From Thermaurantimonas sp. (GTDB taxonomy: Bacteria > Bacteroidota > Bacteroidia > Flavobacteriales > Schleiferiaceae): a stretch of 64,000 nucleotides of DNA. The stretch is taken from NCBI RefSeq assembly GCF_046299575.1, contig NZ_JBKBHX010000006.1, positions 105,565 to 169,564 on the forward strand. The letters run 5' to 3'. Position numbers and translations under genes: made by a program. The notes under the pieces are model-generated. The model did no database searches and was not told the origin of the DNA. It saw nothing but the letters and a program-made list of their open reading frames with translations. This document shows, one piece after another, positions 3,678-63,758 of the stretch (position 1 is the stretch's first letter; each line of letters opens with the position of its first letter).

Positions 3678-3688
3678 TGGATAGGCTA

Positions 3689-5877: not shown

Positions 5878-5889
5878 AAATTTACATGT

Positions 5890-8074: not shown

Positions 8075-8140
8075 GTAGATGTACTCTAATAAAATTTAGA
8101 AAAGTTTTTTAGATGTTTGAATTAAAGAATAGCTGTGAAA

Positions 8141-11259: not shown

Positions 11260-11262
11260 AAT

Positions 11263-14062: not shown

Positions 14063-14109
14063 TCTTGAATAGATTGCATTAAGTGTAAGAATACCTTCTG
14101 ATAGTATGC

Positions 14110-14400: not shown

Positions 14401-15227
14401 CAGGCTACGTCGGCAAATTTTCGTTCAAACTTGTTGAAATATGCTGTACCACCCAAAAAAACAAGTACAGCAACCAGAGAACCTAACCCAAACTGTGCGT
14501 AGGGAAATGTCAGCGTCGGGATAAACGCGGCCCGAAAGCCCTCAATCACCCCTACCATAGGATTAAGCGCATAGATGGTTTGGTATTTTTCAGGTATTAC
14601 AGAGGATGGATACACCACCGGACAGGCATACATCAGAATCTGAACAAGAAAAGACAAGGCATGCTTTACATCGCGGTACTGAACGGCCAATGCTGAAAGG
14701 AAGGAACCTATACCCAGTGAAAACAGCAGCATGACCAAAACAATTACAGGCAGCCACAGAATATTGGCTGAGGGAAGAATTCTGAAATACAGTAAAAATC
14801 CTATCAGTACTGCCAAACCAATCAGAAAATCCAGCAACTTGGAAAATGCCGCAGAGAGTGGCAGAATGATTCTCGGAAAATAGACTTTTGTAATCATAGA
14901 GGCATTGCCAACCACGCTGTTACTCGCTTCGGTCAGCGTATTGGAAAAGTAATTCCAAATTACCATCCCGGAGAAGCTAAAAAGAATGTAAGGCATTCCA
15001 TTGGAACTGACTTTCACCAGATTTCCGAAAATGATGGTAAATACTATTGTAGTAAATAAGGGCTGAATGATTGCCCAGCTAATACCTAATACGGATTGCG
15101 CATACTTGGCTTTTATGCCTCTGATCACCATGAAATACAAAAGATCTTTGTACCGGATCAACTCTTTGACTGATTCAGCGAACCAGTTTTTTCCGGGTTC
15201 GATAATGATTTCGTTTCTGCTTTCCAT
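14400..15227 (-). CDS. ABC-2 type polysaccharide export permease (Wzm-like)
   Basis: 275 aa and 6 predicted transmembrane segments. The ABC-2 pattern (LIRYKDLLYFMVIRGIKAKYAQSVLGISWAIIQP) is present. Its stop overlaps the start of the wzt remnant. Confidence 0.85.
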   Translation of the reverse strand: MESRNEIIIEPGKNWFAESVKELIRYKDLLYFMVIRGIKAKYAQSVLGISWAIIQPLFTTIVFTIIFGNLVKVSSNGMPYILFSFSGMVIWNYFSNTLTEASNSVVGNASMITKVYFPRIILPLSAAFSKLLDFLIGLAVLIGFLLYFRILPSANILWLPVIVLVMLLFSLGIGSFLSALAVQYRDVKHALSFLVQILMYACPVVYPSSVIPEKYQTIYALNPMVGVIEGFRAAFIPTLTFPYAQFGLGSLVAVLVFLGGTAYFNKFERKFADVA

Positions 15228-16261
15228 TACGCTAAGCCGTGGTAATTTTTATACCAATCCACAAAATTTTTCAATCCTTTTTCAATCGGAGTGTGTGGTT
15301 CAAAACCGACCAGATCAGATAGATCTGCTACATCGGCATAGGTTGTAAGTACGTCACCCGGCTGTAGTGGCAGGAGCTCGATTTGAGCCTTTTTTCCAAT
15401 TATATTTTCCAAATGGTGGACAAAAACCATCAGATTAACGGGTGAATGATTTCCGATGTTTAAAACTCTGTAAGGTGCTTTTGAAACTGCGGGGGAGACT
15501 TTACGATTTTCATCTCTGTATGGTGGCTGTCCGATAAGGCGGCTTATACTTTCGACAATGTCGTCCACATAGGTAAAATCGCGCTTCATATTGCCGTAAT
15601 TAAACACCTGGATGGGTTTTTCTTCCAGTATTGCTTTGGTAAACTTATATGTAGCCATATCTGGTCTTCCCCAAGGTCCATAAACAGTGAAGAACCTTAA
15701 ACCCGTGGTGGGGAGATTATACAAATGACTGTAGGTGTGCGCTATAAGTTCATTCGACTTTTTGGAGGCTGCATACAGCGATATCGGATGATCGACACTA
15801 TCGCCGGTAGAATATGGCACTTTTTCGTTCAGCCCATAAACACTGCTGCTGGAAGCATAAATGAAGTGCGAACACTTCTGTTGCTTTGCTTTTTCTATGA
15901 TGTTGTAAAAACCTAAGATATTTGACTGAATATAAGCCTCCGGATTCTCAAGTGAGTATCTTACACCGACCTGAGCGGCTAAATGAATAATTACATCAAA
16001 ATTGTATTGAGAAAAAACGTTTTCTACTTCTTTTGAATCAGTTATATCTATCTGAAAAAAATCAAAGTTTGATGTTTTATAATATTTTTCAGATTCTACC
16101 AATTCTACCCCCAATTCTTTAAGTCTTGCTTTTTTCAGAGCAGGATCGTAATAGGAGTTTAAGTTATCAATGCCGACGATTTTTTGAGAGTTGCCAAATA
16201 TTTTTTTGATAAGGTGAAAACCAATGAACCCTGCTGCTCCGGTAACTAAAATGTTTTTCAA
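15227..16261 (-). CDS. NAD-dependent nucleotide-sugar epimerase (UDP-glucuronate 4-epimerase-like, extended SDR)
   Basis: MKNILVTGAAGFIGFHL, an YASSSSVYG ... YAASK catalytic pattern, 344 aa. Confidence 0.8.
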   Translation of the reverse strand: MKNILVTGAAGFIGFHLIKKIFGNSQKIVGIDNLNSYYDPALKKARLKELGVELVESEKYYKTSNFDFFQIDITDSKEVENVFSQYNFDVIIHLAAQVGVRYSLENPEAYIQSNILGFYNIIEKAKQQKCSHFIYASSSSVYGLNEKVPYSTGDSVDHPISLYAASKKSNELIAHTYSHLYNLPTTGLRFFTVYGPWGRPDMATYKFTKAILEEKPIQVFNYGNMKRDFTYVDDIVESISRLIGQPPYRDENRKVSPAVSKAPYRVLNIGNHSPVNLMVFVHHLENIIGKKAQIELLPLQPGDVLTTYADVADLSDLVGFEPHTPIEKGLKNFVDWYKNYHGLA

Positions 16262-29391: not shown

Positions 29392-30061
29392 GAAGTTCTA
29401 TAAAGGTCTTTCTATCAATTTCTTCGGCCCCGAGCGATCGGAGGTGAGCTGTGCTCATCTGGCAGTCAATGAGTTTTACAGCTCCAGAAGATACCCATTC
29501 CCTGCATGCGGATATCAGTGCAAATTTGGAAGCATTGGCCTCCAGGCTGAACATCGATTCACCGAAAAACACCTTTCCGAGCCAAACTCCGTAATATCCA
29601 CCGACCAGCCGACCTTCGTGCCAGGTTTCGTATGAATGGACGATGCCTATCCGATGAAGCTCGGTGTATGCCTCAATGATGTCCCGGCCGATCCACGTGC
29701 CACGCTGTCCGCGTCTTTTTATGCAGGCACAATGGGTAATCACCTGCTCAAAAGCCTGATTTTTTGTAAGGTGAAAATGTCCTCTGTTAAAGACTGTACG
29801 CATGCTGTGGCTTACATGTACTTTCTCCGGAAAAAGTACCATCCGCGGATCGGGCGACCACCACTCTATGGTCGTGCCCGGCTCATACCAGGGAAAGTAG
29901 CCATGACGATAGGCATCTATCAAATTCGGTAATGACAGATCACCGCCTATGAAGACAGGAAAATCTCCCGGATCATTCGATGAAGGATAGGGAAAAATGG
30001 ATGACAATTCCGAATTTTGACCCTGCATACAAATACTCTTGAACAATAGCAAAATAAACAT
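29372..30061 (-). CDS. aat: Leucyl/phenylalanyl-tRNA--protein transferase
   Basis: AYRHGYFPWY..., WWSPDPRMVLFPEKVHVSHSMR, GTWIGRDIIEAYTELHRIGIVHSYETW, GGYYGVWLGKVFFGESMFS. Confidence 0.85.
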   Translation of the reverse strand: MFILLLFKSICMQGQNSELSSIFPYPSSNDPGDFPVFIGGDLSLPNLIDAYRHGYFPWYEPGTTIEWWSPDPRMVLFPEKVHVSHSMRTVFNRGHFHLTKNQAFEQVITHCACIKRRGQRGTWIGRDIIEAYTELHRIGIVHSYETWHEGRLVGGYYGVWLGKVFFGESMFSLEANASKFALISACREWVSSGAVKLIDCQMSTAHLRSLGAEEIDRKTFIELLRKWVG

Positions 30062-30407
30062 CCGCCGAAGCGATTTTTACGAAATGGTGTGGGACGTGGT
30101 GCGGCTGATTCCGCCCGGCCGAGTGACTACGTACGGTCACATTGCAGAATACCTCGGCGCCAAAGGTGCAGCCCGCATGGTGGGCTATGCGATGAACGCT
30201 TCGCACATCCATCCCGATATCCCTGCCCATAGGGTAGTAAACCGCAAAGGCCTGCTTACCGGCAAACATCATTTCGGTCACCCTCAGCGAATGCAGAAGC
30301 TCCTCGAAGCCGAAGGCATCACCGTGCTCAACGATCAGGTACTACACTTTGAAAAGCACCTCTGGATACCTTCACGGGAGTTGGGGAGTGACGCATTTTT
30401 TTCTTAA
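30039..30407 (+). CDS. Alkyltransferase-like (ATL) protein: MGMT DNA-binding domain with Ala in place of the acceptor Cys
   Basis: IPPGRVTTYGHIAEYLG...GYAM...IPAHRVVNRKGLLTG. The canonical active site is PCHRV and here it is PAHRV. Confidence 0.75.
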   Translation: MNNSKINIRRSDFYEMVWDVVRLIPPGRVTTYGHIAEYLGAKGAARMVGYAMNASHIHPDIPAHRVVNRKGLLTGKHHFGHPQRMQKLLEAEGITVLNDQVLHFEKHLWIPSRELGSDAFFS

Positions 30408-30805
30408 TCGACCATTTAACGCTCTTTATTCAGGTGGTCTGTATAAATCAATCAGAAATTTTACGGAATTAAAAAAAAGTCACCTTGATAACACAGGCTA
30501 CAGATTTTCGCTCTTTTTTATCTATCCTTCAGAAGGATTTTAGCAGAATACATCTATTGTTTGGTGAAACTTTCCCGTGGTAAGGCAAGAGGGTTAAAAA
30601 AACATGGTGTTATAATCCTTTTTCCGCTTGTGATATGAATTTTTTTTGTAGAGTCCCAGAGTATTTGTTTATTAGGTTATTGTGTTAGTTAATTAAAATT
30701 TTGGGATAAGGAAGATTTATTTACAAATTTTCCTGCAAGATTTTTTAAAGCTTTTTCTTTAATTGGATTTGTTATTTTAAAATATTCTTGCAACATAAGG
30801 CTGGC

Positions 30806-33800
30806 TTATATTCTTACCGTTAATTGGTCTGCAAACAACTCTGCTTGTTTTAATACGGTATCAATTGCCTTTTGTTGTTTATCAGGTGGATAGCCATATT
30901 TATTCAGTGTGCGCTTTACGATTACCATGAGCCTTGCTCTGGCACTTTCTCTTATGGTCCAGTCTATGGTTGCATTGGCTCTTACTTTGTTGGCTATTTC
31001 TTTTGCTATTTCTTTTGAGGTCTCGTTACCTAATACCTGAACGGCACTGTCGTTTACTTCCAAAGCATTGTAAAATGCCACTTCATCGGGTGTGAGTCCG
31101 AGCTTTTCGCCTTCTTTATCGGCTTCTTTTATTTCTTTGGCTATATTGATGAGTTCCTGAATAATTTCAGCGGTTGTAAGTAAATTATTCTGATAGCGTT
31201 TGATCGCGCTTTCAAGCATTTCCAGCAATTTCTTGCTCTTTACCAGATTTGTTTTGGCTCTTACTTTCAGCTCGTTGTTCAGAATTTTTTTCAGCAACTC
31301 GATTGCTAAATTTTTGTGCTGCATTCCCTGAACTTCCAACAGAAATTCATCGGAAAGTATTTCCAATCCTGAAATATCGGGCTTCTGAATTCCCGCAGCA
31401 TCAAAAATGTCAATCACTTTATCGCTGCTCAATGCTTCATCCACAATTTGTTTGATGGCGGTTTCTATTTCCACATCTGATTTACCACCACCAACAGGAG
31501 CATCAAACTTTACCAATCTTGATTTAACGGCTTGAAAAAACGCCACTTCGGTCAGATGAGGCTGTACTTCTTCTTTGGTAATGCAAAGCGAAAGTGCCTG
31601 ACTTAATAAACTTACCTCACGAATAAACCTCTCTTTACCGTTCTGTAACCCTAAAATGTGTTCTTCTGCTTGCAGAATGATGGAGAGTTTTTCCCGTTCA
31701 TCTGCAACAAAAAATCGGCGGTAATTGAATTTGAAACTGCCTTCGTAATAGGCCTGTGGTTCTTCAACCAAAATATCATTCCGGGTATTGCTCTCTTCAT
31801 AGAACATTTGCTGCACCACTTCCAGTTTCTCTTTGAAAATATCAAATGCTTTTTCGATGTTTTCTGCCGGGTCGCCTTTTCCACCTGCTTCACCGTAAAA
31901 TGAAAGCGCTTTCTTTAAATCGGTTCCAATGCCCAAATAATCCACAATCAAACCGCCCGGTTTGTCTTTGAAAACACGGTTTACCCGTGCAATGGCTTGC
32001 ATCAGGTTGTGTCCTCGCATGGGCTTATCAACGTACATCGTATTCAGGCAAGGAGCATCAAAACCCGTAAGCCACATATCCCGAACAATTACCAACTTCA
32101 GCTCATCAGCCGGATTTTTCATGCGTTCGGCCAACATACGGCGTTGTTCTTTAGTGGTGTGGTGTTGGGCAATTTCGGGGCCGTCTGCACTATTGGTGGT
32201 CATGACTACTTTAATAACCCCTTTAGTCAAATCGTCATGGTGCCATTCCGGACGAAGTGCAATAATTTCTTTGTAGAGTTCGGCAGCAATTCTGCGGCTC
32301 ATGGCTACAATCATTGCCTTGCCTTCAAAAACAGCCTGGCGTTGCTCAAAATGCGAAACAATGTCCCGGGCTAAATTTTTCAAACGTTCCGGATGTCCCA
32401 CAATGGCTTCCAGCTTTGTCCATTTGGCTTTGGCTTTTTGACCACCCCACCCTTCGGGTACCCCTCCATCGGAGGGGAATTCTTGGTCTTGTTCTAATTC
32501 CCGGTCGAATTCTTCAATTAAGCGTCTGCCTTCTTCGTCCAGATTTACCTTTGCCAGGCGACTTTCATAATAAATGGGTACCGTTGCCCCATCATCTATG
32601 GCATCTTTTATATCGTAGCGGTCGATGTAATTGCCGAAAACCTGAGGGGTGTTTCTGTCTGTACCTTCAATAGGCGTACCTGTAAAACCAATGTAGGTGG
32701 CATTGGGTAAAGCATCGCGCATGTATTTGGCAAAGCCGTAAGCAATGCGTTTGCCGATGACTTCTTTGGTTACTGCGTCTTTTTCGTCAATCAATTTTGC
32801 TTCAAAGCCATATTGCGTTCGGTGGGCTTCGTCGGCAATTACTACAATATTTCTGCGGTCGGAAAGTTGGGGGAACTTATCGCCCGATTGAGGTAAAAAC
32901 TTCTGAATAGTGGTAAAAACAATGCCCCCACTTGCCACCTTCAATAGTTCTTTGAGATGCTCTCTGCTTTCGGCCTGCACAGGTTCTTGCCGCAGCAACT
33001 GAACCGATGCCGCAAACGTATCAAACAACTGGTCGTCTAAATCGTTGCGGTCGGTAATGACTACTATGGTTGGATTTTTCATTTCGGGCGAAGTGATGAG
33101 CTTGCCCGCATAAAAAACCATACTCAAACTTTTGCCCGAACCTTGGGTGTGCCAAACCACACCGCCCCGCTTATCTCCGTTTTCGGCTGATGCCTGTATG
33201 GTTGATTGAACGGCTTTATTGACGGCATAGTACTGATGATAGGCCGCTAATTTCTTAACGGTATGCACCTGGATCAATCCTGTTTTGGGGTCTTCTTTTT
33301 TCGTTTTTTCAAATACAATAAAGTTGCGAACCAAATCCAGCAGTGTGGCGGGTTGCAGCATACCTCTGAGCAGCGTTTCTAATTGTGGCTTAAACCGGGA
33401 GGCCTCTCTAATTCCGTCAACGGTTTTCCATGCCATAAAACGCGAAAAATCGGCACTTACGGTGCCTGCTCTGCATTCCAGGCCATCGGAAATAATACAG
33501 ATAGCATTGTATGTGAATAAGCTGGGAATAGTGGCTTTGTAGGTTTGTATTTGCTGATACGCACTTTTGATGTCGGCCGTTTCGCTGGCGGCATTTTTCA
33601 GTTCTATGACTACCAAAGGCAAACCATTGACAAACAGCAACACATCGGGGCGTTTGTGCTGGTTGTTTTCAATAATGGTGTATTGATTTACTACTAAAAA
33701 TTGATTATTGGCCGGATGCTCAAAGTCAATCAATGCCACTTCGTGGCTGCGTTCATAGCCGTTTTCCTGATAGGGTACTTTTACCTTTTCAACCAGCAAG

Positions 33801-34105
33801 CGGTGAAATTCTTCGTTGTTGTGCAGCAAGTCAGGCGAAGCAATCCTTAACACTTTTTGAACAGCTGCTTCCTGTGCATCTAAGGGAATGTGCGGATTGA
33901 TTTTAGCAATGGCAGTTCTCAGCCGATTGAGCAAAAGAATTTGATTGAAACTTTCTCTTTCGTTACCACCCCGTACTTCGGACACCCCTCCGGAGGAGGG
34001 GAATTCGGGGGGAGAACAGGCAGAGCCCGGCAAGTATTCCCAGCCCTGCGATTGCAGAATTTCAATTGCTGACTGTTCGATGATATTTTCGGATAGAATA
34101 TTCAT
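30806..34105 (-). CDS. hsdR: Type I restriction enzyme R subunit
   Basis: 1099 aa. WHTQGSGKSLSMVF (helicase motif I), VVIADEAHRTQYG (DEAH), GFTGTPI, and the C-terminal HsdR domain. Its start ATG (34105..34103) overlaps the stop of the upstream gene (ATGA). Confidence 0.95.
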   Translation of the reverse strand: MNILSENIIEQSAIEILQSQGWEYLPGSACSPPEFPSSGGVSEVRGGNERESFNQILLLNRLRTAIAKINPHIPLDAQEAAVQKVLRIASPDLLHNNEEFHRLLVEKVKVPYQENGYERSHEVALIDFEHPANNQFLVVNQYTIIENNQHKRPDVLLFVNGLPLVVIELKNAASETADIKSAYQQIQTYKATIPSLFTYNAICIISDGLECRAGTVSADFSRFMAWKTVDGIREASRFKPQLETLLRGMLQPATLLDLVRNFIVFEKTKKEDPKTGLIQVHTVKKLAAYHQYYAVNKAVQSTIQASAENGDKRGGVVWHTQGSGKSLSMVFYAGKLITSPEMKNPTIVVITDRNDLDDQLFDTFAASVQLLRQEPVQAESREHLKELLKVASGGIVFTTIQKFLPQSGDKFPQLSDRRNIVVIADEAHRTQYGFEAKLIDEKDAVTKEVIGKRIAYGFAKYMRDALPNATYIGFTGTPIEGTDRNTPQVFGNYIDRYDIKDAIDDGATVPIYYESRLAKVNLDEEGRRLIEEFDRELEQDQEFPSDGGVPEGWGGQKAKAKWTKLEAIVGHPERLKNLARDIVSHFEQRQAVFEGKAMIVAMSRRIAAELYKEIIALRPEWHHDDLTKGVIKVVMTTNSADGPEIAQHHTTKEQRRMLAERMKNPADELKLVIVRDMWLTGFDAPCLNTMYVDKPMRGHNLMQAIARVNRVFKDKPGGLIVDYLGIGTDLKKALSFYGEAGGKGDPAENIEKAFDIFKEKLEVVQQMFYEESNTRNDILVEEPQAYYEGSFKFNYRRFFVADEREKLSIILQAEEHILGLQNGKERFIREVSLLSQALSLCITKEEVQPHLTEVAFFQAVKSRLVKFDAPVGGGKSDVEIETAIKQIVDEALSSDKVIDIFDAAGIQKPDISGLEILSDEFLLEVQGMQHKNLAIELLKKILNNELKVRAKTNLVKSKKLLEMLESAIKRYQNNLLTTAEIIQELINIAKEIKEADKEGEKLGLTPDEVAFYNALEVNDSAVQVLGNETSKEIAKEIANKVRANATIDWTIRESARARLMVIVKRTLNKYGYPPDKQQKAIDTVLKQAELFADQLTVRI
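32442..32482. repeat. 41-nt palindrome-containing element inserted in frame in hsdR (encodes EFPSDGGVPEGWGG)
   Basis: CCACCCC ACCC TTCGG GTA CCCCTCC ATC GGAGGGG AATTC. It contains a 7-bp-arm palindrome and is a near copy of 33966..34006. Confidence 0.8.
33966..34006. repeat. 41-nt palindrome-containing element inserted in frame in hsdR (encodes EFPSSGGVSEVRGG)
   Basis: CCACCCC GTAC TTCGG ACA CCCCTCC GGA GGAGGGG AATTC. Same orientation and same reading frame as the 32442..32482 copy. Confidence 0.8.
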
Positions 34106-36852
34106 TTATTCAGATGATATTTATTTTTTCTTCTTTGAAAAGCAATTTTCCCACCCTCAAGGATATTACAAACCGCAGTATTTATTACAGGATTTTCTAA
34201 TGAACCGCTGTCATAAGATAGTTTTTCTTCGTTGTTTGTTGCAACAATGACCTGTTCAGCGTCTGCATTTACTACAAGGTTTGCATTATGAGTTACAATT
34301 ATAACTTGCCTGTATTTCTTTATTTCTTTGAAAATATCAGTAAGGTCATTAAAGATAAAATCGTTATCAAGATCATCTTCGGGTTGGTCGAAAATAATAG
34401 GTTGAGAAAAAATATTTGTAGCTAATTTTAAGCACAAATAAATAGTTCCTCTCTGACCTACTGAGATTTTATTCAAAGGTTTTCCTTTATAAGTGATTTT
34501 GGGCTGAACATATAAATATTTAGAACGGGATTGAAGATCATAAAATATTTTTTCAAACTCATATCTGTTAGAACGTAAATAATTTTCAATTTTTTGAAAA
34601 GATGTATCAATGTTTCTCAGAAAATCAAGGTAATTCTCTAAATCGATAATTCCAACTAATCCTTTCAGTTCTTCATAACTGTTTTTTCCTTTGAAAATTC
34701 TGCCGTCTAACTGTTCTTTTACGAGGTCGTAAAATGCATTTATATCAAAAACTATTTCTCCCTCAATCTTGATTTCTCTGTTGTTAATAATTTTTTTCAT
34801 TAATTCCTTTTGCTGCTCATTCCAACCCTCTTTTCCTTGTAGAAGCCTACTCCAGCTTTGATCAATTGTAGATTTATGACGTAATAATTCCGAATAAATT
34901 AAATCAGCTATTTTCTTTTTATTGTTAAGAGCTGATTTTCGTTGGTTTTCTTTCTCTTCTATTTCTTTCTTTCGTCTTTCGTAAGATGAAATGGTGTGTC
35001 TGAACCGTTCTACATTTGAAAGCAGGGAGGCTATATCCCCTTTATAGTCCTTAAAATCGTTTTTAATTTTTGCATTTTCTTCTTGAGCTTCTTTTATTGT
35101 ATCGTCAATATTTTTAATAGCAGCATCAATACCATCAATTTGTGGTTTAAAATCTAATAAGGGAATACCCTTGTTTAGTTTAGTAATTTGTTCGTTTGTT
35201 TTTTGTAGAAATTCAGTTAGAGATGTTTTGAGTTGCTCTAAACTGAGTTTTTCGCTTTCACAGTCTTGCAGTTTTTCAATGTTTGCTGTATACTTTTGTA
35301 GTTTTTCTTTATTTTCCTCTGTTGTAATCCTATCTAATAAATTACGATTTTTATCTATTTCCTGCTGAATATAAGATTTCTGGTTTATAGGATTATTATT
35401 TTCATCCCGCTTGTTAAACCATTCCAGAATAGTATTAAATTCGGATCTATAATTCTGGATAGTTTCATCAATTTTCTGGTCAAATGAAAGCGTTTCAAGT
35501 TCCAAAATCTTCTTAATTTCCTCTCCCAATCCTTTTGCATCTTTTACCTTCTCTTTCACTTCACTTTGGGATATAAAAAGAAAGGGTAAATCGTACTGAG
35601 TATCCAATGGAAAAGTCTCATCCGTGCTATTAAGTGATTTTTTCCATTTTACTTTAAAATCTGATGATAGATTAAATTCAGATTTTTCAAAAGGAACATT
35701 GTATTGTTTAAACCCGTTTGCAAAATAGTTTATCAAAACACTTTTACCGGCTCCTCGTCCTCCAATAATTGTTACTAAGTTCTGATTTAATGGGATTCTG
35801 TTTTTCTCAAATTGTAATTGCTCATTCTCGAATACATTTACAGGATTTTCAATTTCAATTTCTGTAAAGGCAGATTTTTCAAAGTCATATGCTGGGTTAG
35901 TATTCTGTATTTTTACCCTTTCTTCCGGCTCATAAATGATTTGCTTTAGCCCTTCGAAAGTAAGATCTGATTTTATCCAAACTTTTCTATCTTGATTCTT
36001 TGTAAATAACTCATCAAATGTATGCGCATCACTTCCTCCAATACATGCTTTTAAACTTTTAAATTCATTAATGAAGTCTTCCGAAGAAGGATGTTTTTTG
36101 CCTAAAGCCCATTGTATAGTATTGGGGTTTGTAGCAATTAAAATGTCAGATTTCTGAATAAGTAATTTTCTTGCCTGATGATCCTGACCATTCCACGAAA
36201 CATTGCTTAAATCTTCATCAGAGGGCAAGGCAATTAGATATTTGCCTTCAAAGATGTTGCGTTTATTTGCAAGAATTTCACATATCTGTTTGTCATCAAC
36301 AACTGCATTCATCATTCCAATATACAAAGGTGATTTACCTTTGAATTGTGTGTGTTGCTCAATTAATTTTTCACCTAATTTTTCTAGATTATTTTTTTTC
36401 AATTTTCGCTTTTCATCTTCACTCTGTGGGGCGGCCTCATAAATAAAATCAATTTCATGCAGGAAATTTTCCTCAATATCAGTAAAAGAAATATCGTCAG
36501 ATAGTAAGACATGAAAGTTTATTCTATTGGAACCCACCAGTTTGTTAAGTCGAAATTCTATGTTCGGCAAGACGTAAATTGATTTGATCTTCTCAATTTC
36601 TTCTGAGTTAAAAAGCTCTTTTAATTTATCTTCTTTTTCAAAATACTCAGTCTTTATCTTCTTATAACCGTCAATTGTGAAATAGTCGGTTATTCCGATA
36701 GCTGAAACATTGTTTGCAATGGCTCTTTTAAATAATTCTTTTACATAAGTATCCCAATCGTTTCCAAAGCCATTATATAAATGAGAATATGGGGTGTGAA
36801 TATGCAAATCCCATAATCTCCATTCTGAACCTCTTTTAAAATTTTCTTTCAT
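34102..36852 (-). CDS. PHP-domain phosphoesterase fused to a coiled-coil ABC/SMC-like ATPase (Ppl-like architecture), embedded between hsdS and hsdR
   Basis: 916 aa. The N-terminal PHP motifs are WDLHIHTPYS, PNIEF, NFHVLL and IGGSDAH. Then come Walker A (IIGGRGAGKSVLINY), about 400 aa of K/E-rich heptad-like sequence, a signature-like ISVGQRGTIYLCL, Walker B/D-loop (QPIIFDQPEDDLD) and an H-loop (VIIVTHNANL). Confidence 0.8.
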   Translation of the reverse strand: MKENFKRGSEWRLWDLHIHTPYSHLYNGFGNDWDTYVKELFKRAIANNVSAIGITDYFTIDGYKKIKTEYFEKEDKLKELFNSEEIEKIKSIYVLPNIEFRLNKLVGSNRINFHVLLSDDISFTDIEENFLHEIDFIYEAAPQSEDEKRKLKKNNLEKLGEKLIEQHTQFKGKSPLYIGMMNAVVDDKQICEILANKRNIFEGKYLIALPSDEDLSNVSWNGQDHQARKLLIQKSDILIATNPNTIQWALGKKHPSSEDFINEFKSLKACIGGSDAHTFDELFTKNQDRKVWIKSDLTFEGLKQIIYEPEERVKIQNTNPAYDFEKSAFTEIEIENPVNVFENEQLQFEKNRIPLNQNLVTIIGGRGAGKSVLINYFANGFKQYNVPFEKSEFNLSSDFKVKWKKSLNSTDETFPLDTQYDLPFLFISQSEVKEKVKDAKGLGEEIKKILELETLSFDQKIDETIQNYRSEFNTILEWFNKRDENNNPINQKSYIQQEIDKNRNLLDRITTEENKEKLQKYTANIEKLQDCESEKLSLEQLKTSLTEFLQKTNEQITKLNKGIPLLDFKPQIDGIDAAIKNIDDTIKEAQEENAKIKNDFKDYKGDIASLLSNVERFRHTISSYERRKKEIEEKENQRKSALNNKKKIADLIYSELLRHKSTIDQSWSRLLQGKEGWNEQQKELMKKIINNREIKIEGEIVFDINAFYDLVKEQLDGRIFKGKNSYEELKGLVGIIDLENYLDFLRNIDTSFQKIENYLRSNRYEFEKIFYDLQSRSKYLYVQPKITYKGKPLNKISVGQRGTIYLCLKLATNIFSQPIIFDQPEDDLDNDFIFNDLTDIFKEIKKYRQVIIVTHNANLVVNADAEQVIVATNNEEKLSYDSGSLENPVINTAVCNILEGGKIAFQRRKNKYHLNK

Positions 36853-36867
36853 ATTGCCTTTCTGATT

Positions 36868-37968
36868 TTAACTCTTCACTCTTATTTCCCCGCTCATCAG
36901 CTTCGGCAGCAGCGTATCCCGCAACTGCGTAAGCGTGCGAATTTGCTGGGTGTTGGATTTGATTTTTTGGAAAAGGGGTTCAATTTCTTTATCAAAGTGC
37001 TTTATCTTTTCCTTTGGGGGAATAAGAAAATCCAGTGTTCTGAATGCTGCCTTTGAAATCTCTTGAAATACAGAACCGTTTCCTGCATTTTCTATCATTT
37101 CCATATTAGCCTTACACCACAAAAACATAAAATAGTTTGAAACGATTTTGTCGCATATAATTGCGATATACCCTTGATTGATGGCAACAGGAATTTCAGT
37201 TATAGCTAAATATCCAATAGGTGCTCTTGATGAAAGCAATAAAGTGCCAACAGGCAGAAGTCCAGAACTTATTTGCTTTAAACCTTCTTCTGTGATTTTG
37301 CGTGATGTGTCAAAAAGAAATATGGAAGTTGTGTTTGATAAATCTCTTGGAGAAGTCCAATGAATATTACCATCCCAATATTTCTGTTCTGTTGTGCTCG
37401 GTGTTGTTCCGCCTTTCATTGAAACAACATCATCAATAGTTCCAACCTCCCAACTCTCATCTGCTTCTTCTATGAACCACTGCCTGAAGAGGGTTTCAGC
37501 TAATTGCTCTAAGGTTTTGTTTTGGCGGTGCAGCAGGTCTATTTTGTCGTCTAAGCTGCTGAGTACTTCGGCTATGGCGGTTTGTATTTTTACATCATCC
37601 GTAATTGAAATATCTATTGAATTGAGTAAAGTTTGAGTTACAAGTGGGTGACTTGAACCCTCAGCATAACTGTTTAAATCTAAATTCCTCAAGAAATAAT
37701 ATAGAAACTTGGCATTGTACCCATTCTTTGGTTTTGCTGCTAATGCATTATCTGAAACCCAAATAGGTTTATCTTGATAATAAACAGAACCACAATAAGC
37801 ACCAACTCGCCCAATTATTATTGTTTCCCCATTGTAATTTGAACTATCACAATAACCTAAAATCCCGTTTCCACCAAACACGGGTATATCCCCTTTTGTT
37901 TTTGGTCTTTCCTTGCCATTTCCAAACTGAACAAATTCTGATAGTTTATATTCTTTCCACTCACTCAT
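36868..37968 (-). CDS. hsdS: Type I restriction-modification specificity subunit
   Basis: 366 aa. Two target-recognition halves are separated by the conserved spacer LDDKIDLLHRQNKTLEQLAETLFRQWF, and the C-terminus has the matching repeat IRTLTQLRDTLLPKLMSGEIRV. Confidence 0.9.
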   Translation of the reverse strand: MSEWKEYKLSEFVQFGNGKERPKTKGDIPVFGGNGILGYCDSSNYNGETIIIGRVGAYCGSVYYQDKPIWVSDNALAAKPKNGYNAKFLYYFLRNLDLNSYAEGSSHPLVTQTLLNSIDISITDDVKIQTAIAEVLSSLDDKIDLLHRQNKTLEQLAETLFRQWFIEEADESWEVGTIDDVVSMKGGTTPSTTEQKYWDGNIHWTSPRDLSNTTSIFLFDTSRKITEEGLKQISSGLLPVGTLLLSSRAPIGYLAITEIPVAINQGYIAIICDKIVSNYFMFLWCKANMEMIENAGNGSVFQEISKAAFRTLDFLIPPKEKIKHFDKEIEPLFQKIKSNTQQIRTLTQLRDTLLPKLMSGEIRVKS

Positions 37969-37998
37969 ATTATTGGTTTATTTTTAAATTGAAATTCG

Positions 37999-38024
37999 TT
38001 TTTCACTTTTCATTTTTCACTTTT
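37999..38024. repeat. Two copies of TTTTTCACTTTT (12 nt) spaced 2 nt apart, between orf263 and hsdS
   Basis: 37999..38010 and 38013..38024 are identical. On the coding strand this reads AAAAGTGAAAAA twice, 31-56 nt upstream of the hsdS ATG. Confidence 0.6.
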
Positions 38025-38029
38025 CGTTT

Positions 38030-38821
38030 TTACGCTGCTTGTTTTAATTTAGCAATGTTTTCGGGGGCATGCCTTTCGGTCCAAAGAATAAAATCGGCAT
38101 TTTTGCTACGCAAAGCGTCTAAGTATTCTTGCTGTATTTCTTTTTCTTCGTTATTGATTATAGCCAGTCCTATTACTTGTTTGTTGGTAATTTTTTCTCT
38201 TACGCTTTTAATATCCTCCCAGGTAAAAAGAAAATTGGGTATATTCAGTTTATTTAGAGTATTGAATGCTTTCAAAACAATTTCTTTCTCGCGGTAGGCA
38301 ATTTGAAAATCGAAAGTAAATTCCAGTCCTGTGCTTCCTTTAGAAATAAATTGGGGGGTGTAAATAATTTCTTGTTCGTCAAGATAATTGCGTACATCTT
38401 CTTTAAAGATAGAAGCAACGGTGTGCTTGGCGAGCATATACATATCGTTAATTTCAGAAATGGCGGAAATGAGATTATGTTTTTTCTGAGCGAAGTTATT
38501 TTCAGTGGCTTCTACAATTAACTCATCATTTTGTAATTGTATGCCATAGGTGAGTAAAATCCGTTCGAGCAAATCTTTTCGTTTAGGCGAACGAGTAATA
38601 GCCGCCCCTGTTAGTTCAAGATTTTTGAGCGTAATTCCATCATCGGACATAAGAATTTTGCCATTGTCTTTTTTGGCGTAAATTTCTAATGTATCATTAA
38701 ACAAGCCAATGAAAGGCGTGCTGATGACTGCCCAATTCGTACCTGTATCGGTTACAATGGTTGTACGTTCTTTCAAAAAATCGTAATATTTATTGATAAG
38801 TTCGTTTATCCAATGGTTCAT
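38030..38821 (-). CDS. Uncharacterised protein (263 aa); possibly DUF1828/DUF1829-type (recollection only)
   Basis: The start ATG overlaps the upstream stop (ATGA, 38821..38818). No catalytic motif recognised. The length and the N-terminal pattern (INELINKYYDFLKERTTIV...ISTPF...DTLEIY...DDG.T...L) resemble DUF1828+DUF1829 proteins as I remember them. I have not verified this. Confidence 0.55.
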   Translation of the reverse strand: MNHWINELINKYYDFLKERTTIVTDTGTNWAVISTPFIGLFNDTLEIYAKKDNGKILMSDDGITLKNLELTGAAITRSPKRKDLLERILLTYGIQLQNDELIVEATENNFAQKKHNLISAISEINDMYMLAKHTVASIFKEDVRNYLDEQEIIYTPQFISKGSTGLEFTFDFQIAYREKEIVLKAFNTLNKLNIPNFLFTWEDIKSVREKITNKQVIGLAIINNEEKEIQQEYLDALRSKNADFILWTERHAPENIAKLKQAA

Positions 38822-39345
38822 AGAAGTGAAGGTTGCAGTATGTTAAAAACAGTTTGCAAATGAATTAATTTGTTGAATGAAAAAAATGCCTGCTCAATAT
38901 CGTTATTGTTTGAGATAGTTTTCACGGGAAAACTATCCTCGGTTAATGGCAAAGCCCAATCTAAGGTAGTTTTATATCCTTCCACATAATAATGAATGTG
39001 ATGTTCGTGATAATCGAAAAACTTACCTGCAAAAGGATGAAAAATTTCAGGAACTTTGGGTGTAATTGTTTCGGGGTTTTTGTGTTGTCCGTTATAGTCT
39101 ATCCTTATCAGTCCAATTTTAGTGTCATCATCAAGCAGATATAACGTAAGTTTGAAATGATTTTTCTTGCTTTGGGTTATATCATAGATAAATGTGAAAT
39201 CGGTATTATCAGGCGAAATAAGCGTATATCTTACCGTAAATGGAAATGGTTGTTGATGGATTTCAATTTTATCTTCCAATACACCATTCATTTCTACTTT
39301 TTTTGGTAATTCTAAAAGATATTGTGCTTGTTGTATCGAGAACAT
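38818..39345 (-). CDS. Uncharacterised protein (175 aa), His-rich C-terminal half
   Basis: The ORF is translationally coupled to orf263. It contains IRIDYNGQHKNPE ... FHPFAGKFFDYHEHHIHYYVEGY. I recognise no family. Confidence 0.5.
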   Translation of the reverse strand: MFSIQQAQYLLELPKKVEMNGVLEDKIEIHQQPFPFTVRYTLISPDNTDFTFIYDITQSKKNHFKLTLYLLDDDTKIGLIRIDYNGQHKNPETITPKVPEIFHPFAGKFFDYHEHHIHYYVEGYKTTLDWALPLTEDSFPVKTISNNNDIEQAFFSFNKLIHLQTVFNILQPSLL

Positions 39346-39469
39346 TTTGTTGCAGTATTTTTAGTTGATATGTAACAAATTTTATATCTCAAATGCCTTC
39401 GTAGTTATTGATGAGTTTTATGTCGTAATTCATGGTATTGAAATTTCGTTGGTTTTAATTGTCTAATGT

Positions 39470-39916
39470 TTAATCAGTGCTGCCTTCGGGATCCTCAGGC
39501 AGCATTTGGGGAGTTTTATTATCGCTGCCTTCGAGTGCCTCAGGCAGCGGCACCTCAGGGTGGCTGAGGTTCTCGAAGCCACCCTGAGTGTTCTCGAAGC
39601 CACCCTGAGTGTTCTCGAGCTCACCCTTTTTTAAGTCACGATAAGCAAGCGCTAATTGCGGAAGTAATTCCGGTGTTCCATTTATCAACGCTTCTTTCTT
39701 CTTCCGGCTCCAACCCTGCACTTGCTTTTCGCGATAAAATGCTTCGTCAATGCGTGCATATTCCTCAAAATATACCAGCTTCACGGGTAATCTTTTCCTG
39801 GTATGATTCGCCCCTTCACCCGCCTGATGTTGAGCCAATCGCAGTTCAAGATTGGTAGTACTGCCGGTATAGTAACTGCCGTCAGCGCATTCTAATATGT
39901 ACATGTATCCTTTCAT
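39470..39916 (-). CDS. GIY-YIG nuclease family protein (core about 95 aa) with a repeat-encoded C-terminal extension
   Basis: GYMYILECADGSYYTGSTTNLELRLAQHQAG...RLPVKLVYFEEY...A...REKQVQGWSRKKKEALI is the small GIY-YIG (URI) domain. The last 50 aa or so (ENTQGGFENTQGGFENLSHPEV...) are translated from the hairpin/tandem repeats at 39479..39628. Confidence 0.85.
   Translation of the reverse strand: MKGYMYILECADGSYYTGSTTNLELRLAQHQAGEGANHTRKRLPVKLVYFEEYARIDEAFYREKQVQGWSRKKKEALINGTPELLPQLALAYRDLKKGELENTQGGFENTQGGFENLSHPEVPLPEALEGSDNKTPQMLPEDPEGSTD
39479..39628. repeat. Array of three stem-loops sharing a 13-nt loop, plus three 21-nt tandem units
   Basis: 39479..39503 is GCTGCC-TTCGGGATCCTCA-GGCAGC. 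39524..39548 is GCTGCC-TTCGAGTGCCTCA-GGCAGC. 39556..39586 is CAGGGTGGC-TGAGGTTCTCGAA-GCCACCCTG. 21-nt units start at 39566, 39587 and 39608. Confidence 0.85.
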
Positions 39917-39947
39917 ACTTTCATCTATGACGGGGGCTTCGGCTATT

Positions 39948-39978
39948 CAGGGTGGCTTCGAGAACCTCAGCCACCCTG
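39948..39978. repeat. 31-nt stem-loop, the exact reverse complement of 39556..39586
   Basis: CAGGGTGGC-TTCGAGAACCTCA-GCCACCCTG. Together with 39556..39586 it brackets the GIY-YIG core ORF as a perfect 31-nt inverted repeat. Confidence 0.85.
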
Positions 39979-40008
39979 TGTATTCTAAAAGCAAGCACCC
40001 TGAAAAGC

Positions 40009-41622
40009 TCAGCCCTCATGTATGTTTATTTTAGATAAATTAGCCATGATTCTATCATTCAATTCTTTCTCTTCCTGCATTTGTTTTTCCAGTTCGGCTT
40101 TGAGGGAAGCGAAGCGTTCGGCAAAGTTGAAGTCGTCTTCTTCTTCCGGTAGCCCCACGTAGCGGCCGGGTGTTAAGGCATAGTTTAGTGCTCTGACTTC
40201 CTCAATGGTTGCACTTTTGCAAAAGCCCTGAATGTCTTGGTAAGCTCCGCCTTCGACAGGCTCAGGCATCGCTTCGGCCGGCTCAGGCATCGCATTCCAA
40301 CGATGGTAAGTTTGGGCAATTTTTTGTATGTCGGCATTGCTAAGTTCACGGGTTCTGCGGTTAATCAAATGACCCATATTGCGGGCATCGATAAAAAGGA
40401 TTTGCCCTTTTCGGTTTTCACTTTTCTTTTTTCGTATAAACCAAAGGCAAGCAGGTATTTGCGTATTCAAAAACAATTTAGTGGGCAGGTTCACAATGCA
40501 GTCAATCAAATCGGCATCAACCAGGGCCTTGCGAATTTCGAATTCACCGCCCGCATTGCTGGTTAGCGAGCCTTTGGAAAGCACAAAGCCGGCCCTTCCG
40601 TTGGGAGCGAGATGATAGAGGAAGTGCTGTATCCAGGCATAGTTGGCATTGCCTGCCGGAGGAACCCCATACACCCATCGCGGGTCGTTTTTAAGCAATT
40701 CGCCACTCCAGTCGCTATCGTTAAAGGGCGGATTGGCAATGATAAAATCGGCTTTAAGGTCTTTGTGGGCATCGTTTAAAAAACTGCCTTCGTTGTTCCA
40801 TTTCACATTGCTGCTGTCGATGCCACGTATGGCAAGGTTCATTTTGCAGAGCCGCCAGGTGGTTTGGTTGCTTTCCTGTCCGTAAATAGAGATACGGTCT
40901 GATGGATTAAGCTGTAATTTTCTTCCGTTGTTTTTTTTGTAATAATCCTGATGGGCTTTAATAAATTTTTCGCTTTGTACAAACATGCCCCCGCTTCCAC
41001 AGCAAGGGTCAAATACCCTGCCTTCATAAGGTTCGAGCATTTCTACCAAAAGTTTTACTACACTTTCAGGCGTATAGAACTGACCTCCTTTCTTGCCTTC
41101 TGCCAGGGCAAATTGCCCCAGGAAGTATTCGTACACTCTGCCCAGAATATCTTTGGCTTGGGCTTCTTTAGTGCCCAGTGTTGCGGTACTAATCAGGTCA
41201 ATAAGTCCGCCCAGGCTGGTTTTGTCTAATTTTTCCTGTGCATATACTTTGGGCAAAACGCCTTTCAAAGAGGGGTTGTCTTTTTCTATGGCATCCATGG
41301 CATCGTCAATGTCTTTGCCAATGGAGGGCAGTTTTGCTCTGCCTTGCAGCCACGACCAACGAGCAGAAGGCGGCACATAAAACACTTTCTCGGCGACATA
41401 TTCATTTTTGTCTTCGGGGTCGGCTCCTTCATAGTCGCCTTTGCCTTCTTTCAGTTTGTGGTAAAGTTCTTCGAAAGCATCGGAGATGTATTTTAGGAAA
41501 ATAAGCCCTAAAACCACATGTTTGTATTCGGCTGCATCCATGTTTTTACGGAGCTTGTCAGCCGCTTTCCAGAGTTTTTTCTCCAAGGATTCTTCTGCTA
41601 TTTCTTTTGCTTTTTTGGCCAT
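40009..41622 (-). CDS. hsdM: Type I restriction-modification N6-adenine DNA methyltransferase subunit
   Basis: 537 aa. N-terminal HsdM domain ([32 protein letters not shown]), [12 protein letters not shown] (motif I) and IIANPPFN (motif IV). Confidence 0.95.
40251..40292. repeat. Two 21-nt tandem units inside hsdM (encode [14 protein letters not shown])
   Basis: CTTCGACAGGCTCAGGCATCG (40251..40271) and CTTCGGCCGGCTCAGGCATCG (40272..40292). The core TTCGRNNGGCTCA resembles the loops of the GIY-YIG-flanking hairpins. Confidence 0.8.
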
Positions 41623-41905
41623 TATTGAGATTTTAATTGTTTGCTAAATTAGGTTTTGGTTATTTCTTTTCGTAATCAGAGCTTTGGCAGGAAATAGGGC
41701 CGGCTATAGTTGAATCTGGTTTTGCTAAGGGACAAATTAAATATTCTGATACAGTTCAGCATTGAATTATTCGTGTTTTTCTCTAGGCGTCAGTTGTAAG
41801 TCGCTTCACAATAAAAAAAATCGAAGTAAAAAATTAAAACACAAATAATATGGCAATGCATGTAGGTTTATTCGTTGTCCGTTTTAAATTTGTCCTAAAT
41901 ATTAG

Positions 41906-42905
41906 TCACCTGTCAGAATGGTTTATTTTTTTCTTAATTATAAGTTGTCTGTATGTTGTTGTCAGGTCGTCTTTTACAATTGCTGTCAATGGTTTAAAAC
42001 GGTATAAAGGTCTGCAATTGTTAGGATTTTTAGCATTGAACTTGATTTGAAGCACAAAACTTTTGGCTACCACTGAAATGTAATCGAAGGACGAAACCCC
42101 GAATTGCAAATGTGCTTTATTGTACAATTTTTATCATTTTCGAGGTCTCTCATTGGTGAAGAATAAGTCGTAAAGTTCATGCAGTTCAGGCTTTATACTG
42201 TCAAACAGTTTTTTTAGTTTCTTTAATATTTATAGATGCCACTTCAGGAAAAATTCTCTTCAAATGTTTTATCTTCTTTATATAGTCTGGATAATAAAAT
42301 TTCACCTATCTGCCATTAAATTCATTTATTTCAATGAGTGGCCAGAGATATTCATATGCATTCCACGTTGGAGTTTTTCGAACTTTTCTTATAACACTGT
42401 CTTTTGGGATGGCAGGATTCACCCTATTTTGAATGTAACCTTCTATTGTAAACCATTCTTTCGGTAAAAATCATATGTGCAAGTTGTTTTTCTACAACTA
42501 GTCTGGCACCTTTATTTCTTTTTTCAAGTTCAACTGCTCGAAACAATACATCGCTATTGGGAATCTGCTTGACAAAGTTTTTTAGATCAAATATTGGGTC
42601 AATCGTCAACTGTCCATAAACTATCGCACCGCGCAATAAAAGGTTATTTTGAAATAAGATAGAATAGAGATATCCTAAGTGTATAAGTGTCGAGCTTAAA
42701 ATTGTCCCTGTAATAAAAATTTCACCCCCCCAAAAATATACATTAAAATCGAGCTTAATCTTTCAATGCGCTTTTTGTGACCAGAGACGAAAAGAGCTTG
42801 GATTTTTACCTGTTATAGGATAATTCAATTCTTTTAAAATGACATTTATCGATATGAATCTTACCAATTTTTCATAAAAAATTCGTACTCATTAACATCG
42901 CTCAT
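41906..42905 (-). pseudogene. Decayed gene of unknown family (about 330 codons with frameshifts and in-frame stops)
   Basis: Hand translation of the minus strand gives MSDVNEYEFFMKNW, a frameshift, VRFISINVILKELNYPITGKNPSSFRLWSQKAH, an in-frame TGA, KIKLDFNVYFWGGEIFITG...LLLRGAIVYGQLTIDPIF...AHMIFTE, a frameshift, WFTIEGYIQNRVNPAIPKD...EINEFNGR, a TAG, VKFYYPDYIKK..., a frameshift, FDSIKPELHELYDLFF... Only short fragments appear in the ORF track. Confidence 0.4.
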
Positions 42906-43059
42906 AGGGTTGGAAGCTGTTGTGAGTAATCAAGATAGTACATGCCCACTTGGCGAAGCCATTCCCTTTTTGCAATTTATCCGTTACACACGAGATAAAA
43001 TCCCCACCCACATATTCCTTAAAAACACTGTATGTTTGAGCATCTAAACGAATTTTTGT

Positions 43060-46136: not shown

Positions 46137-46210
46137 TGACTTCGTAGGGATTCGAACCCCAAACCTTCTGATCCGTAGTCAGATGCTCTATCCAGTTGAG
46201 CTACGAAGCC
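46137..46210 (-). tRNA. tRNA-Arg (anticodon ACG)
   Basis: The reverse complement is GGCTTCGTAGCTCAACTGGATAGAGCATCTGACTACGGATCAGAAGGTTTGGGGTTCGAATCCCTACGAAGTCA. It folds as a cloverleaf (7-bp acceptor, GCTC/GAGC D stem, TCTGA/TCAGA anticodon stem, loop CTACGGA, GGTTCGAATCC T-arm). CCA is not encoded. Confidence 0.9.
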
Positions 46211-63750: not shown

Positions 63751-63758
63751 CGATTGAG

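Follow-up and report, generated by a model that had tools for sequence, protein, structure and literature searches.

Within the window, a 64,000-nucleotide stretch of a Thermaurantimonas sp. genome (NCBI RefSeq assembly GCF_046299575.1, contig NZ_JBKBHX010000006.1, positions 105,565 to 169,564), seven genes are clustered on the minus strand in the order hsdM, GIY-YIG, PDC-M24A, PDC-M24B, hsdS, TrlF, hsdR. This is a type I restriction-modification (R-M) operon with embedded cargo, and our subject is the cargo gene located between hsdS and hsdR, whose product combines a PHP phosphoesterase with a coiled-coil ABC (ATP-binding cassette) ATPase. An initial annotation, made from the nucleotide sequence of the window, had likened this protein to SbcCD/Mre11-Rad50, proposed that it might be a homolog of the anti-phage protein Ppl and suggested a guard-type or cooperative function with the restriction subunit HsdR. 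Here we assign it to the TrlF family, describe the recurrent, same-strand association of this family with R-M genes and discuss what its role in such operons may be.

The TrlF protein and its relation to Ppl

The 916-aa open reading frame (ORF) and every motif quoted for it in the initial annotation are present in the window sequence. The gene and its predicted domains are as follows:

34102..36852, minus strand: TrlF-family gene encoding a PHP phosphoesterase plus coiled-coil ABC ATPase (916-aa ORF, ATG start)
35893..36831, minus strand: PHP domain, aa ~8-320 (sub-threshold Pfam PHP match, 335-aa model, residue conservation)
35533..35871, minus strand: ABC ATPase N-lobe, aa ~328-440 (Walker A GGRGAGKS 364-371 at nt 35740-35763, Q-loop Q429)
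34753..35532, minus strand: helical coiled-coil insert, aa ~441-700, no CxxC zinc hook (AlphaFold model)
34105..34752, minus strand: ABC ATPase C-lobe, aa ~701-916 (signature, Walker B/D-loop, H-loop, tail)

The protein is a member of an already named family. It matches the NCBIfam model NF045780, 'TrlF family AAA-like ATPase', with 533.9 bits (cutoff 350, E = 1.2e-159), in an alignment which runs from end to end (residues 7-913 on positions 1-944 of the 944-position model), and an identical protein from a Thermaurantimonas sp. metagenome-assembled genome (MAG) is annotated in GenBank as 'TrlF family AAA-like ATPase'. It has the N-terminal PHP domain and the C-terminal ABC-type ATPase with intact catalytic motifs that mark TrlF membership, and carries D15, H17, H19, E99, H114, D275, H277, K370, Q429, D822, E825 and H855. 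The sister model Spaf_1101 gave 136 bits, far short of its cutoff of 475, while in Pfam the PHP and SMC_N domains both matched below threshold. PADLOC-DB 2.0.0 holds no model dedicated to TrlF, and the sole match above 30 bits in that database was the Ppl model; a sequence search of the PDB returned weak matches to Rad50 and to the C-lobes of ABC transporters, and no solved structure of Ppl or TrlF. The family takes its name from the temperature restriction locus trlR-trlF-trlG of Photorhabdus laumondii (PMC7554251), described in the one paper on TrlF that our literature search found.

The quoted motifs of the N-terminal domain lie at residues 15-20 (DLHIHT), 97-100 (NIEF), 113-116 (FHVL) and 272-277 (GGSDAH), and the candidate metal ligands of this domain are D15, H17, H19, D56, E99, H114, D275 and H277. 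In the C-lobe, which shows weak sequence matches to Rad50, we find the signature SVGQRG (797-802), the Walker B/D-loop IIFDQPEDDLD (819-829, with the catalytic E825), H855 within VTHN (853-856) and a conserved C-terminal LEGG..AF..R tail. A full-length AlphaFold model, built on 29 homologs, reached a mean pLDDT (predicted local distance difference test) of 88, and its C-terminal two thirds matched in Foldseek the heads of SMC, condensin, cohesin, JetC, RecF, RecN and Rad50 proteins with coiled coils (E = 4e-8 to 1e-4). For a separate model of residues 1-335 (pLDDT 90.2) the twelve top structural matches were all PHP enzymes (E = 5e-6 to 2e-3, with E <= 5e-4 for the first eleven), including TrpH-like BAD_1165, the PHP domains of PolC, Pol III alpha and M. 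tuberculosis DnaE1, RNase AM and the phosphoesterase of PDB 2yb1. The models thus predict that the N-terminus folds as a PHP phosphoesterase and that an ABC head of SMC/Rad50/RecF-like type, interrupted by a helical insert, makes up the rest.

These fold matches bear out the idea of a PHP domain joined to a Rad50/SbcC-like ATPase, but the parallel drawn in the initial annotation does not extend to a CxxC hook or to an Mre11/SbcD partner, both of which are missing; a search for C..C motifs along the entire protein, which has only five cysteines, found none. The coiled coil is also shorter than had been claimed, as the model shows a helical insert of ~260 aa (residues ~440-700) instead of some 400 aa of heptad-like sequence. 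Of the 425 aa that separate Walker A from the signature, some belong to the ATPase head, namely beta strands of its N-lobe and a portion of its C-lobe. The insert comprises helices at residues 459-480, 492-559, 569-599, 614-672 and 679-692 and is the least conserved part of the family; when we looked for a motif at the apex of the coiled coil, D606, L610 and L611 were found to be conserved in the closer clade only and not family-wide.

Conservation was counted in 29 homologs and in 76 family members. Among the latter, K370, D822, E825 and D829 are invariant (76/76) and Q429 and H855 are each kept in all members but one (75/76). The PHP ligands are kept to varying degrees, D275 in 76/76, E99 in 75/76, H19 in 71/76, H277 in 69/76, H17 in 68/76 and H114 in 57/76. 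Conservation is highest in the C-terminal 120 aa and in the segment 281-320, which joins the PHP domain to the ATPase head.

As a reference for Ppl we used the E. coli protein WP_021514893.1 (plasmid pEC5931-1, 895 aa). BLASTP gave collinear matches between TrlF and Ppl at PHP motif I, at GSDAH together with Walker A and at the C-terminus, with residues 8-127 also covered, and the C-terminus of TrlF is 37% identical to E. coli Ppl across 117 aa. In hhalign the two were aligned with a probability of 99.8% (E = 4e-28, 589 columns, query columns 269-921). Membership of the Ppl family itself was considered and rejected, given that the score against NCBIfam NF042955 was 110.6 bits (cutoff 1000, top-scoring stretch residues 791-909); the PADLOC Ppl model PDLC02208 gave 85.7 bits. 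From the BLASTP and hhalign matches and the failed Ppl cutoffs it follows that TrlF and Ppl are homologous and have the same architecture, yet form distinct families. The suggestion of a Ppl homolog therefore stands in the sense of distant homology and a common layout, but not in the sense of a Ppl-family protein.

The type I R-M operon of the window

The other genes of the operon and the junction between TrlF and hsdR are as follows:

40009..41622, minus strand: hsdM, methyltransferase subunit, 537 aa, first gene of the operon (HsdM_N + N6_Mtase; PADLOC MTase_I 647.9 bits)
39470..39916, minus strand: small GIY-YIG nuclease-domain protein, 148 aa, just downstream of hsdM (Pfam GIY-YIG E = 9e-19)
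38818..39345, minus strand: PDC-M24A (DUF6978; PADLOC E = 9.4e-61, Pfam domain)
38030..38821, minus strand: PDC-M24B (DUF1828+DUF1829; PADLOC E = 1.6e-99, Pfam domains)
36868..37968, minus strand: hsdS, specificity subunit, 366 aa (Methylase_S in two matched stretches; PADLOC Specificity_I 349.8 bits)
34102..34105, minus strand: ATGA overlap of the TrlF stop and hsdR start, read in the sequence
30806..34105, minus strand: hsdR, type I restriction subunit, 1099 aa, apparently intact (HSDR_N, SWI2_SNF2, T1R_D3-like, T1RH-like_C)

TrlF sits at a site like that of prrC, as the initial annotation had stated, with the end of hsdS located 15 nt upstream of its start. At its other end the minus strand reads ...CAT CTG AAT AAA TGA ATA TTC, where the TGA of TrlF occupies positions 34104-34102 and the ATG of hsdR positions 34105-34103. 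Two points make this start of hsdR credible: the alignments to HSDR_N and TIGR00348 begin at residues 4-6, and the HsdR ortholog of a related locus (L081, 87.5% identical) has its start at the corresponding position, where the overlap with TrlF is 1 nt (TAATG). In a third operon (L029) TrlF and hsdR are separated by a 3-nt gap. The ATGA overlap noted in the initial annotation is thus real and compatible with coupled translation, and TrlF is probably translationally coupled with hsdR; the fixed stoichiometry also claimed does not follow from it, as a 4-nt overlap amounts to tight operon packing.

The HsdR protein scores 642 bits against TIGR00348 and 1272.7 bits against PADLOC REase_I. We considered whether TrlF could stand in for a degenerate HsdR nuclease and rejected this, as the nuclease residues D154...E168-x-K170 are intact in 6/6 TrlF-linked HsdRs aligned. 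Near the N-terminus of the window HsdR (residues ~26-43; window 33356-34105) there is a Gly/Ser/Pro-rich stretch, PPEFPSSGGVSEVRGGN, which is approximately 11 residues longer than in the L081 ortholog.

The GC content of the region (window 30000-42000) is uneven, with 31-36% for TrlF, hsdS and the PDC-M24 genes, 40-47% for hsdR and hsdM and 46-59% for the housekeeping flanks. The flanking genes are an S9 peptidase gene at one end of the operon and, at the other, aat together with an MGMT-like gene. This mosaic suggests that the acquisition of cargo and specificity gene was distinct from that of the R-M core.

Besides TrlF, the operon holds two further sets of inserted genes. The PDC-M24A and PDC-M24B genes overlap each other and form a second embedded cargo unit, a PADLOC candidate system, between hsdM and hsdS; a literature search for PDC-M24 found no paper mentioning it. 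The GIY-YIG gene, whose product had no PADLOC or NCBIfam match, might be an insert resembling a homing endonuclease or else a third cargo gene. Enzymes of the GIY-YIG class introduce breaks into DNA, a property worth recording beside a Ppl-like protein that may sense DNA ends.

A scan of the operon for promoters and terminators gave promoter-like counts equal to the shuffled expectation and terminator-like counts within two standard deviations of it, by a method ill-suited to Bacteroidota promoters. Upstream of hsdM there is a 1.4-kb stretch (41623-43059) with no ORF longer than 73 aa and, at 42000-42999, a GC content of 34%; its four largest ORFs had no Pfam match and the stretch had no Rfam match. 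This stretch may serve as a promoter or in regulation, may be what is left of a decayed gene or may encode an RNA that is so far uncharacterised. The window also contains a tmRNA gene cut by its end (63756-64000) and one tRNA gene (46137-46210), both on the minus strand. As neither gene adjoins the R-M island, there is no sign of an island integrated at a tRNA or tmRNA site.

TrlF loci in other bacteria

A scan of one genome per species, covering 185,579 species representatives, detected TrlF relatives in at least 584 of them, and 80 loci were kept. Ten homologs taken across the whole score range all passed the TrlF cutoff (10/10), and neighbouring genes were labelled with iterated profiles and checked against Pfam and PADLOC. 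R-M-type genes lie within three genes of TrlF, on the same strand, in 21/79 loci, and in 16/50 of those loci with at least three genes on each side. Nine of the 79 contexts are type I-like, nine hold a type III-type Mod (N6_N4 methylase) and/or Res, and several contain SNF2 helicases, either DrmD-like or in the form of PLD-SNF2 with a type IIG-like methylase. The linkage is local, as R-M genes make up 7-23% of the genes at offsets -3 to +1, all of them on the TrlF strand, vs 0-3% at 5-8 genes on either side. In approximately 70% of the species loci TrlF has no R-M gene beside it.

A TrlG-like neighbour was seen in 5-6 loci, all of one clade. When the 661 neighbouring ORFs of the 80 loci were clustered in search of an obligate partner, none of the resulting families was represented in more than 10 loci. 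The neighbour-joining tree shows R-M-linked and standalone TrlFs interleaved throughout. Among plasmids, 786 records match the TrlF family, 551 of them conjugative, and many are conjugative plasmids of Klebsiella and E. coli; in 3/3 plasmid loci inspected TrlF is a lone gene. The association with R-M genes is real, operonic and repeatedly re-created, and neither obligatory nor tied to one partner. The initial annotation had made its proposal depend on such a linkage among orthologs, and the surveyed loci show it recurrently. We also considered whether TrlF could be the 'ATPase' component of Hma, and rejected this possibility, as no HmaC-type match was found and the neighbours in the three loci in question (L004, L015 and L028) corresponded best to DrmD, HKD+Snf2 and type IIG proteins, with weak matches to HmaA.

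The closest relatives illustrate this variety. L081, a locus of a Chitinophagales MAG, encodes an 85%-identical TrlF in the order hsdM, hsdS, four different cargo genes, TrlF, hsdR; HsdM and HsdR are 84-87% identical to those of the window and HsdS only 37%. The slot between hsdS and TrlF (L081 3275-6007) holds there a 112-aa ORF, a Peptidase_M78 protein, a 156-aa ORF and a SMODS nucleotidyltransferase, so that between the two loci the cargo slot turns over and the TrlF-hsdR pair stays fixed. In four further loci (L082-L085) TrlFs 80-83% identical to the window protein precede mod and res of a type III system, and in two others (L086, L090) TrlF stands alone. A 49%-identical TrlF lies inside a prophage (L087, 3602-12533), flanked by portal/minor capsid genes and a major capsid gene, in a cassette of an HsdR-like protein, a fused HsdM/S, TrlF and a PD-(D/E)xK nuclease, that is, a phage-borne R-M plus TrlF module. 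The L029 operon of Myroides indicus DSM 28213 (2917-16189) consists of a TrlG-like gene, hsdM, hsdS, a gene for an 879-aa DUF4062/nSTAND NTPase, TrlF and hsdR; it unites a Photorhabdus-type partner and a type I context in a cultured strain and would be a good experimental system.

Possible roles of TrlF and comparison with known systems

The data above show to which family TrlF belongs, what its predicted fold is, that its catalytic residues are conserved, how the operon is built and that same-strand linkage to R-M genes recurs. We are inclined, with modest confidence, to regard TrlF as an autonomous Ppl-like DNA-end exonuclease defence module, embedded as cargo in the R-M operon and possibly fed by restriction breaks. 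Ppl is a single-gene 3'-5' exonuclease of single-stranded DNA, which needs 3'-OH ends and is inhibited by nucleoside triphosphates (NTPs) bound at both its PHP and NTPase domains (review, PMC12904381), and is the likely mechanistic template for TrlF. By this analogy we infer for TrlF a nuclease activity and its polarity, gating by NTPs, an anti-phage role and the use of restriction-made ends. The PHP domain, likely a nuclease, would degrade DNA from free 3'-OH ends, and the ABC head would be expected to dimerise upon nucleotide binding; nucleotide bound at the ATPase and PHP domains would restrain the protein until infection alters NTP pools and creates DNA ends. Breaks made in unmodified DNA by HsdR, or by a type III Res, could be a ready source of such ends, and TrlF would then add a second layer which makes restriction irreversible, with no need for a specific contact with HsdR. 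As R-M breaks would supply such ends, synergy is plausible without a physical complex. TrlF would thus be a self-contained defence cargo, co-transcribed with hsdR in a horizontally mobile type I R-M operon, which fits the occurrence of near-identical TrlFs with type I and type III systems and the many members, indeed the majority, that lack an R-M neighbour. Autonomy is also favoured by the plasmid-borne copies and by the mixing of R-M-linked and standalone TrlFs across the tree. Independent defence genes embedded in type I R-M, BREX, DISARM and Hma operons are documented (bioRxiv 10.1101/2024.01.29.577857), among them TgvAB in a type I R-M system of V. cholerae (PMC11411939).

Several points weigh against this proposal. 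Our literature search found no TrlF protein assayed for phage defence or nuclease activity, and the temperature-tolerant mutations in the Photorhabdus trl operon are all in trlG, which encodes an AlbA_2 + HATPase_c_4 protein, and none in trlF (PMC7554251), so that TrlF itself is without demonstrated function. The Pfam PHP match (E = 1.7e-4) is under the gathering score, and the TM-scores to PHP enzymes are low (0.25-0.40). Ile or Leu takes the place of H114 in 17/76 family members and Gln that of H17 in some, and position 57 (window ~36682-36684) is Tyr in 57/76 and His in 18/76, where Ppl has the His of PHP motif II (SDH); in the closer clade Tyr57 is invariant (29/29). The Tyr at position 57 and the Gln replacing H17 hint at an altered metal coordination relative to canonical PHP enzymes, and in view of the substitutions at all three positions the metal binding and substrate of TrlF may differ from those of Ppl. 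Lastly, the peak of R-M genes beside TrlF could reflect a true functional dependence and not shared housing.

Under such a dependence TrlF would work only together with an ATP-dependent restriction enzyme, as its dedicated degradative arm, loading in an SbcCD-like manner on HsdR or Res breaks, or on stalled enzyme-bound ends, and then degrading the restricted DNA. We consider this possible, though rather unlikely. The same-strand adjacency which peaks sharply beside TrlF speaks for it, as do the position of TrlF next to hsdR, or one small ORF away from it, in about 8/12 type I contexts, the overlapping or near-abutting junctions of the window, L081 and L029, the Rad50/SMC-like head fold, the reported need of Ppl for 3'-OH ends (PMC12904381) and the nature of the identified partners, all of which are methylation systems that contain a helicase or a translocase (type I, type III, DrmD-like and PLD-SNF2). 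However, the majority of members lack an R-M neighbour, with many found singly on plasmids, near-identical TrlFs occur in type I and type III operons, TrlF may stand before or after R, after M or before Mod in the operon, and R-M-linked and standalone TrlFs show no systematic difference in sequence or length. More tentatively still, TrlF could be an unrecognised accessory nuclease of ATP-dependent restriction in general (type I, type III and DISARM-like), an SMC-like end-processor armed with a PHP domain, which would be licensed by breaks or by stalled DNA-bound enzymes and would go on to destroy the restricted DNA; if so, the lone plasmid copies would use other sources of DNA ends, and there would be a mechanistic reason for its repeated, independent capture by different R-M classes. 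A more specific tie to HsdR, as a guard or a cooperating partner, had been suggested in the initial annotation and fits poorly with the surveyed loci, in which 83%-identical TrlFs lie upstream of type III mod-res genes, others accompany DISARM-like or PLD-SNF2 genes and some 70% have no R-M gene nearby. The linkage being unspecific to type I systems or HsdR, it argues against a specific HsdR complex, a fixed stoichiometry and a guard of the PrrC type. Such a guard, in which the type I enzyme would hold TrlF inactive until inhibition of that enzyme by a phage anti-restriction protein released it as a toxic nuclease and thereby caused abortive infection, is in our view very unlikely, even if TrlF occupies the prrC position, has an ABC ATPase like PrrC and RloC and belongs to a type of locus which can be toxic, given that the Photorhabdus trl operon causes growth arrest under stress (PMC7554251), and even if guard systems of this type are established (PMC12707154). 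PrrC is found almost exclusively in type I R-M systems (bioRxiv 10.1101/2024.01.29.577857) and relies on one particular enzyme (PMC12707154), whereas TrlF has a type I context in only ~11% of loci; an inhibitory contact of a specific kind is hard to square with the pairing of 83%-identical TrlFs with unrelated type III enzymes, PADLOC gave no match to PrrC or RloC at E <= 0.01, and the Photorhabdus mutations map to trlG, a gene absent from the window operon.

Explanations outside phage defence fare no better. An addiction or anti-plasmid nuclease, benefiting its carrier element, would be in keeping with the 786 plasmid records (551 conjugative), with contexts that include colicin genes, abortive infection (Abi) genes and PLD genes, and with the restriction of host growth at 36 C by the trl locus (PMC7554251); the window copy is nevertheless chromosomal, among housekeeping genes and within an intact R-M operon, and no cognate antitoxin-like partner is conserved, which makes a selfish module of this kind highly improbable. 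We give the least credence of all to a housekeeping repair enzyme, an analogue of SbcCD/Mre11-Rad50 for the host chromosome which merely happens to lie beside R-M genes. Some database records label relatives 'DNA repair ATPase' or 'DNA repair protein', the head fold resembles those of Rad50, RecN and RecF, and PHP domains act as proofreading exonucleases in replicative polymerases (PMC11348249), but the distribution is patchy (at least 584 of the 185,579 species representatives), TrlF is frequent on conjugative plasmids and is found in a prophage and beside integrases and recombinases, it is operonic with R-M and other defence genes, it belongs to a low-GC mosaic relative to the flanks and its sister family is that of an experimentally tested defence gene.

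TrlF is a large and widely spread family which has a name and no demonstrated function, and for which the sisterhood with Ppl offers a concrete, testable mechanism. Its architecture, its kinship with Ppl and the phenomenon of embedding are of known kinds; that TrlF recurrently forms part of type I, type III and DISARM-like operons is something which our literature search did not find described. About a quarter of the members are wired on the same strand to type I, type III, DISARM-like or PLD-SNF2/type IIG-like operons. If this link is functional, it would show that restriction breaks are handed to a dedicated degradative nuclease, and if it reflects shared housing only, TrlF would further support 'guilt by embedding' as a guide in finding defence genes. 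With its three separate cargo units, the window operon is a compact test bed for these two possibilities.

Of the known systems, Ppl is a single protein with which TrlF can be compared directly. The two proteins have the same domain order and similar lengths (895 aa for Ppl vs 916 aa for TrlF) and share the motifs GS-W..D.H.HTP, GSDAH, Walker A and DQPEDDLD, but the PHP domain of TrlF has ~60 additional residues (GSDAH at 273 vs 210) and a Tyr where the His of the Ppl SDH motif stands, and the Ppl copy examined is a lone gene on an IncF plasmid. The Photorhabdus TrlF, annotated as a histidinol phosphatase, has the same PHP + ABC ATPase architecture (PMC7554251); it differs in its trlR-trlF-trlG context, the window operon having no TrlG, TrlR or AlbA_2/HATPase_c_4 gene, and the TrlG-linked members form a clade of their own, distant from the window protein.

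The gene prrC is located between hsdS and hsdR, and RloC has a coiled-coil insert. TrlF resembles both in being an ABC-type ATPase embedded among type I R-M genes. Unlike them, it has no anticodon-nuclease domain, the effector being the N-terminal PHP domain and the C-terminus an ABC C-lobe; it lacks a zinc hook, matched no PrrC or RloC model of PADLOC at the threshold given above and is not confined to type I systems (9/79 type I-like, 21/79 with any R-M-like context). With Rad50 and SbcC it has in common an ABC head split by an antiparallel coiled coil (heads of Rad50, SMC, RecN and JetC in Foldseek), but its coil is much shorter (~260 aa) and has no CxxC zinc hook, no separate Mre11/SbcD gene is present in the operon and no partner is conserved in the 80 loci. 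The pairing of an SMC-like ATPase with a nuclease recalls Rad50-Mre11/SbcCD, JetC of Wadjet and LmuB of Lamassu, and there are weak sequence matches to LmuB and Rad50; in TrlF, however, the nuclease is fused and of PHP type, not of the calcineurin-like type of Mre11/SbcD or TOPRIM, and there is no kleisin. It also differs from OLD, Gabija and PARIS, which combine an ABC ATPase with TOPRIM, in having no TOPRIM match, while its ATPase region weakly matches HEC-01A (24.4 bits). In its genomic setting, TrlF resembles the R-M-embedded systems TgvAB and the HEC and PDC candidates of Payne et al., as it is a cargo located between the genes of a methylation system, with PDC-M24 alongside (PMC11411939; bioRxiv 10.1101/2024.01.29.577857).

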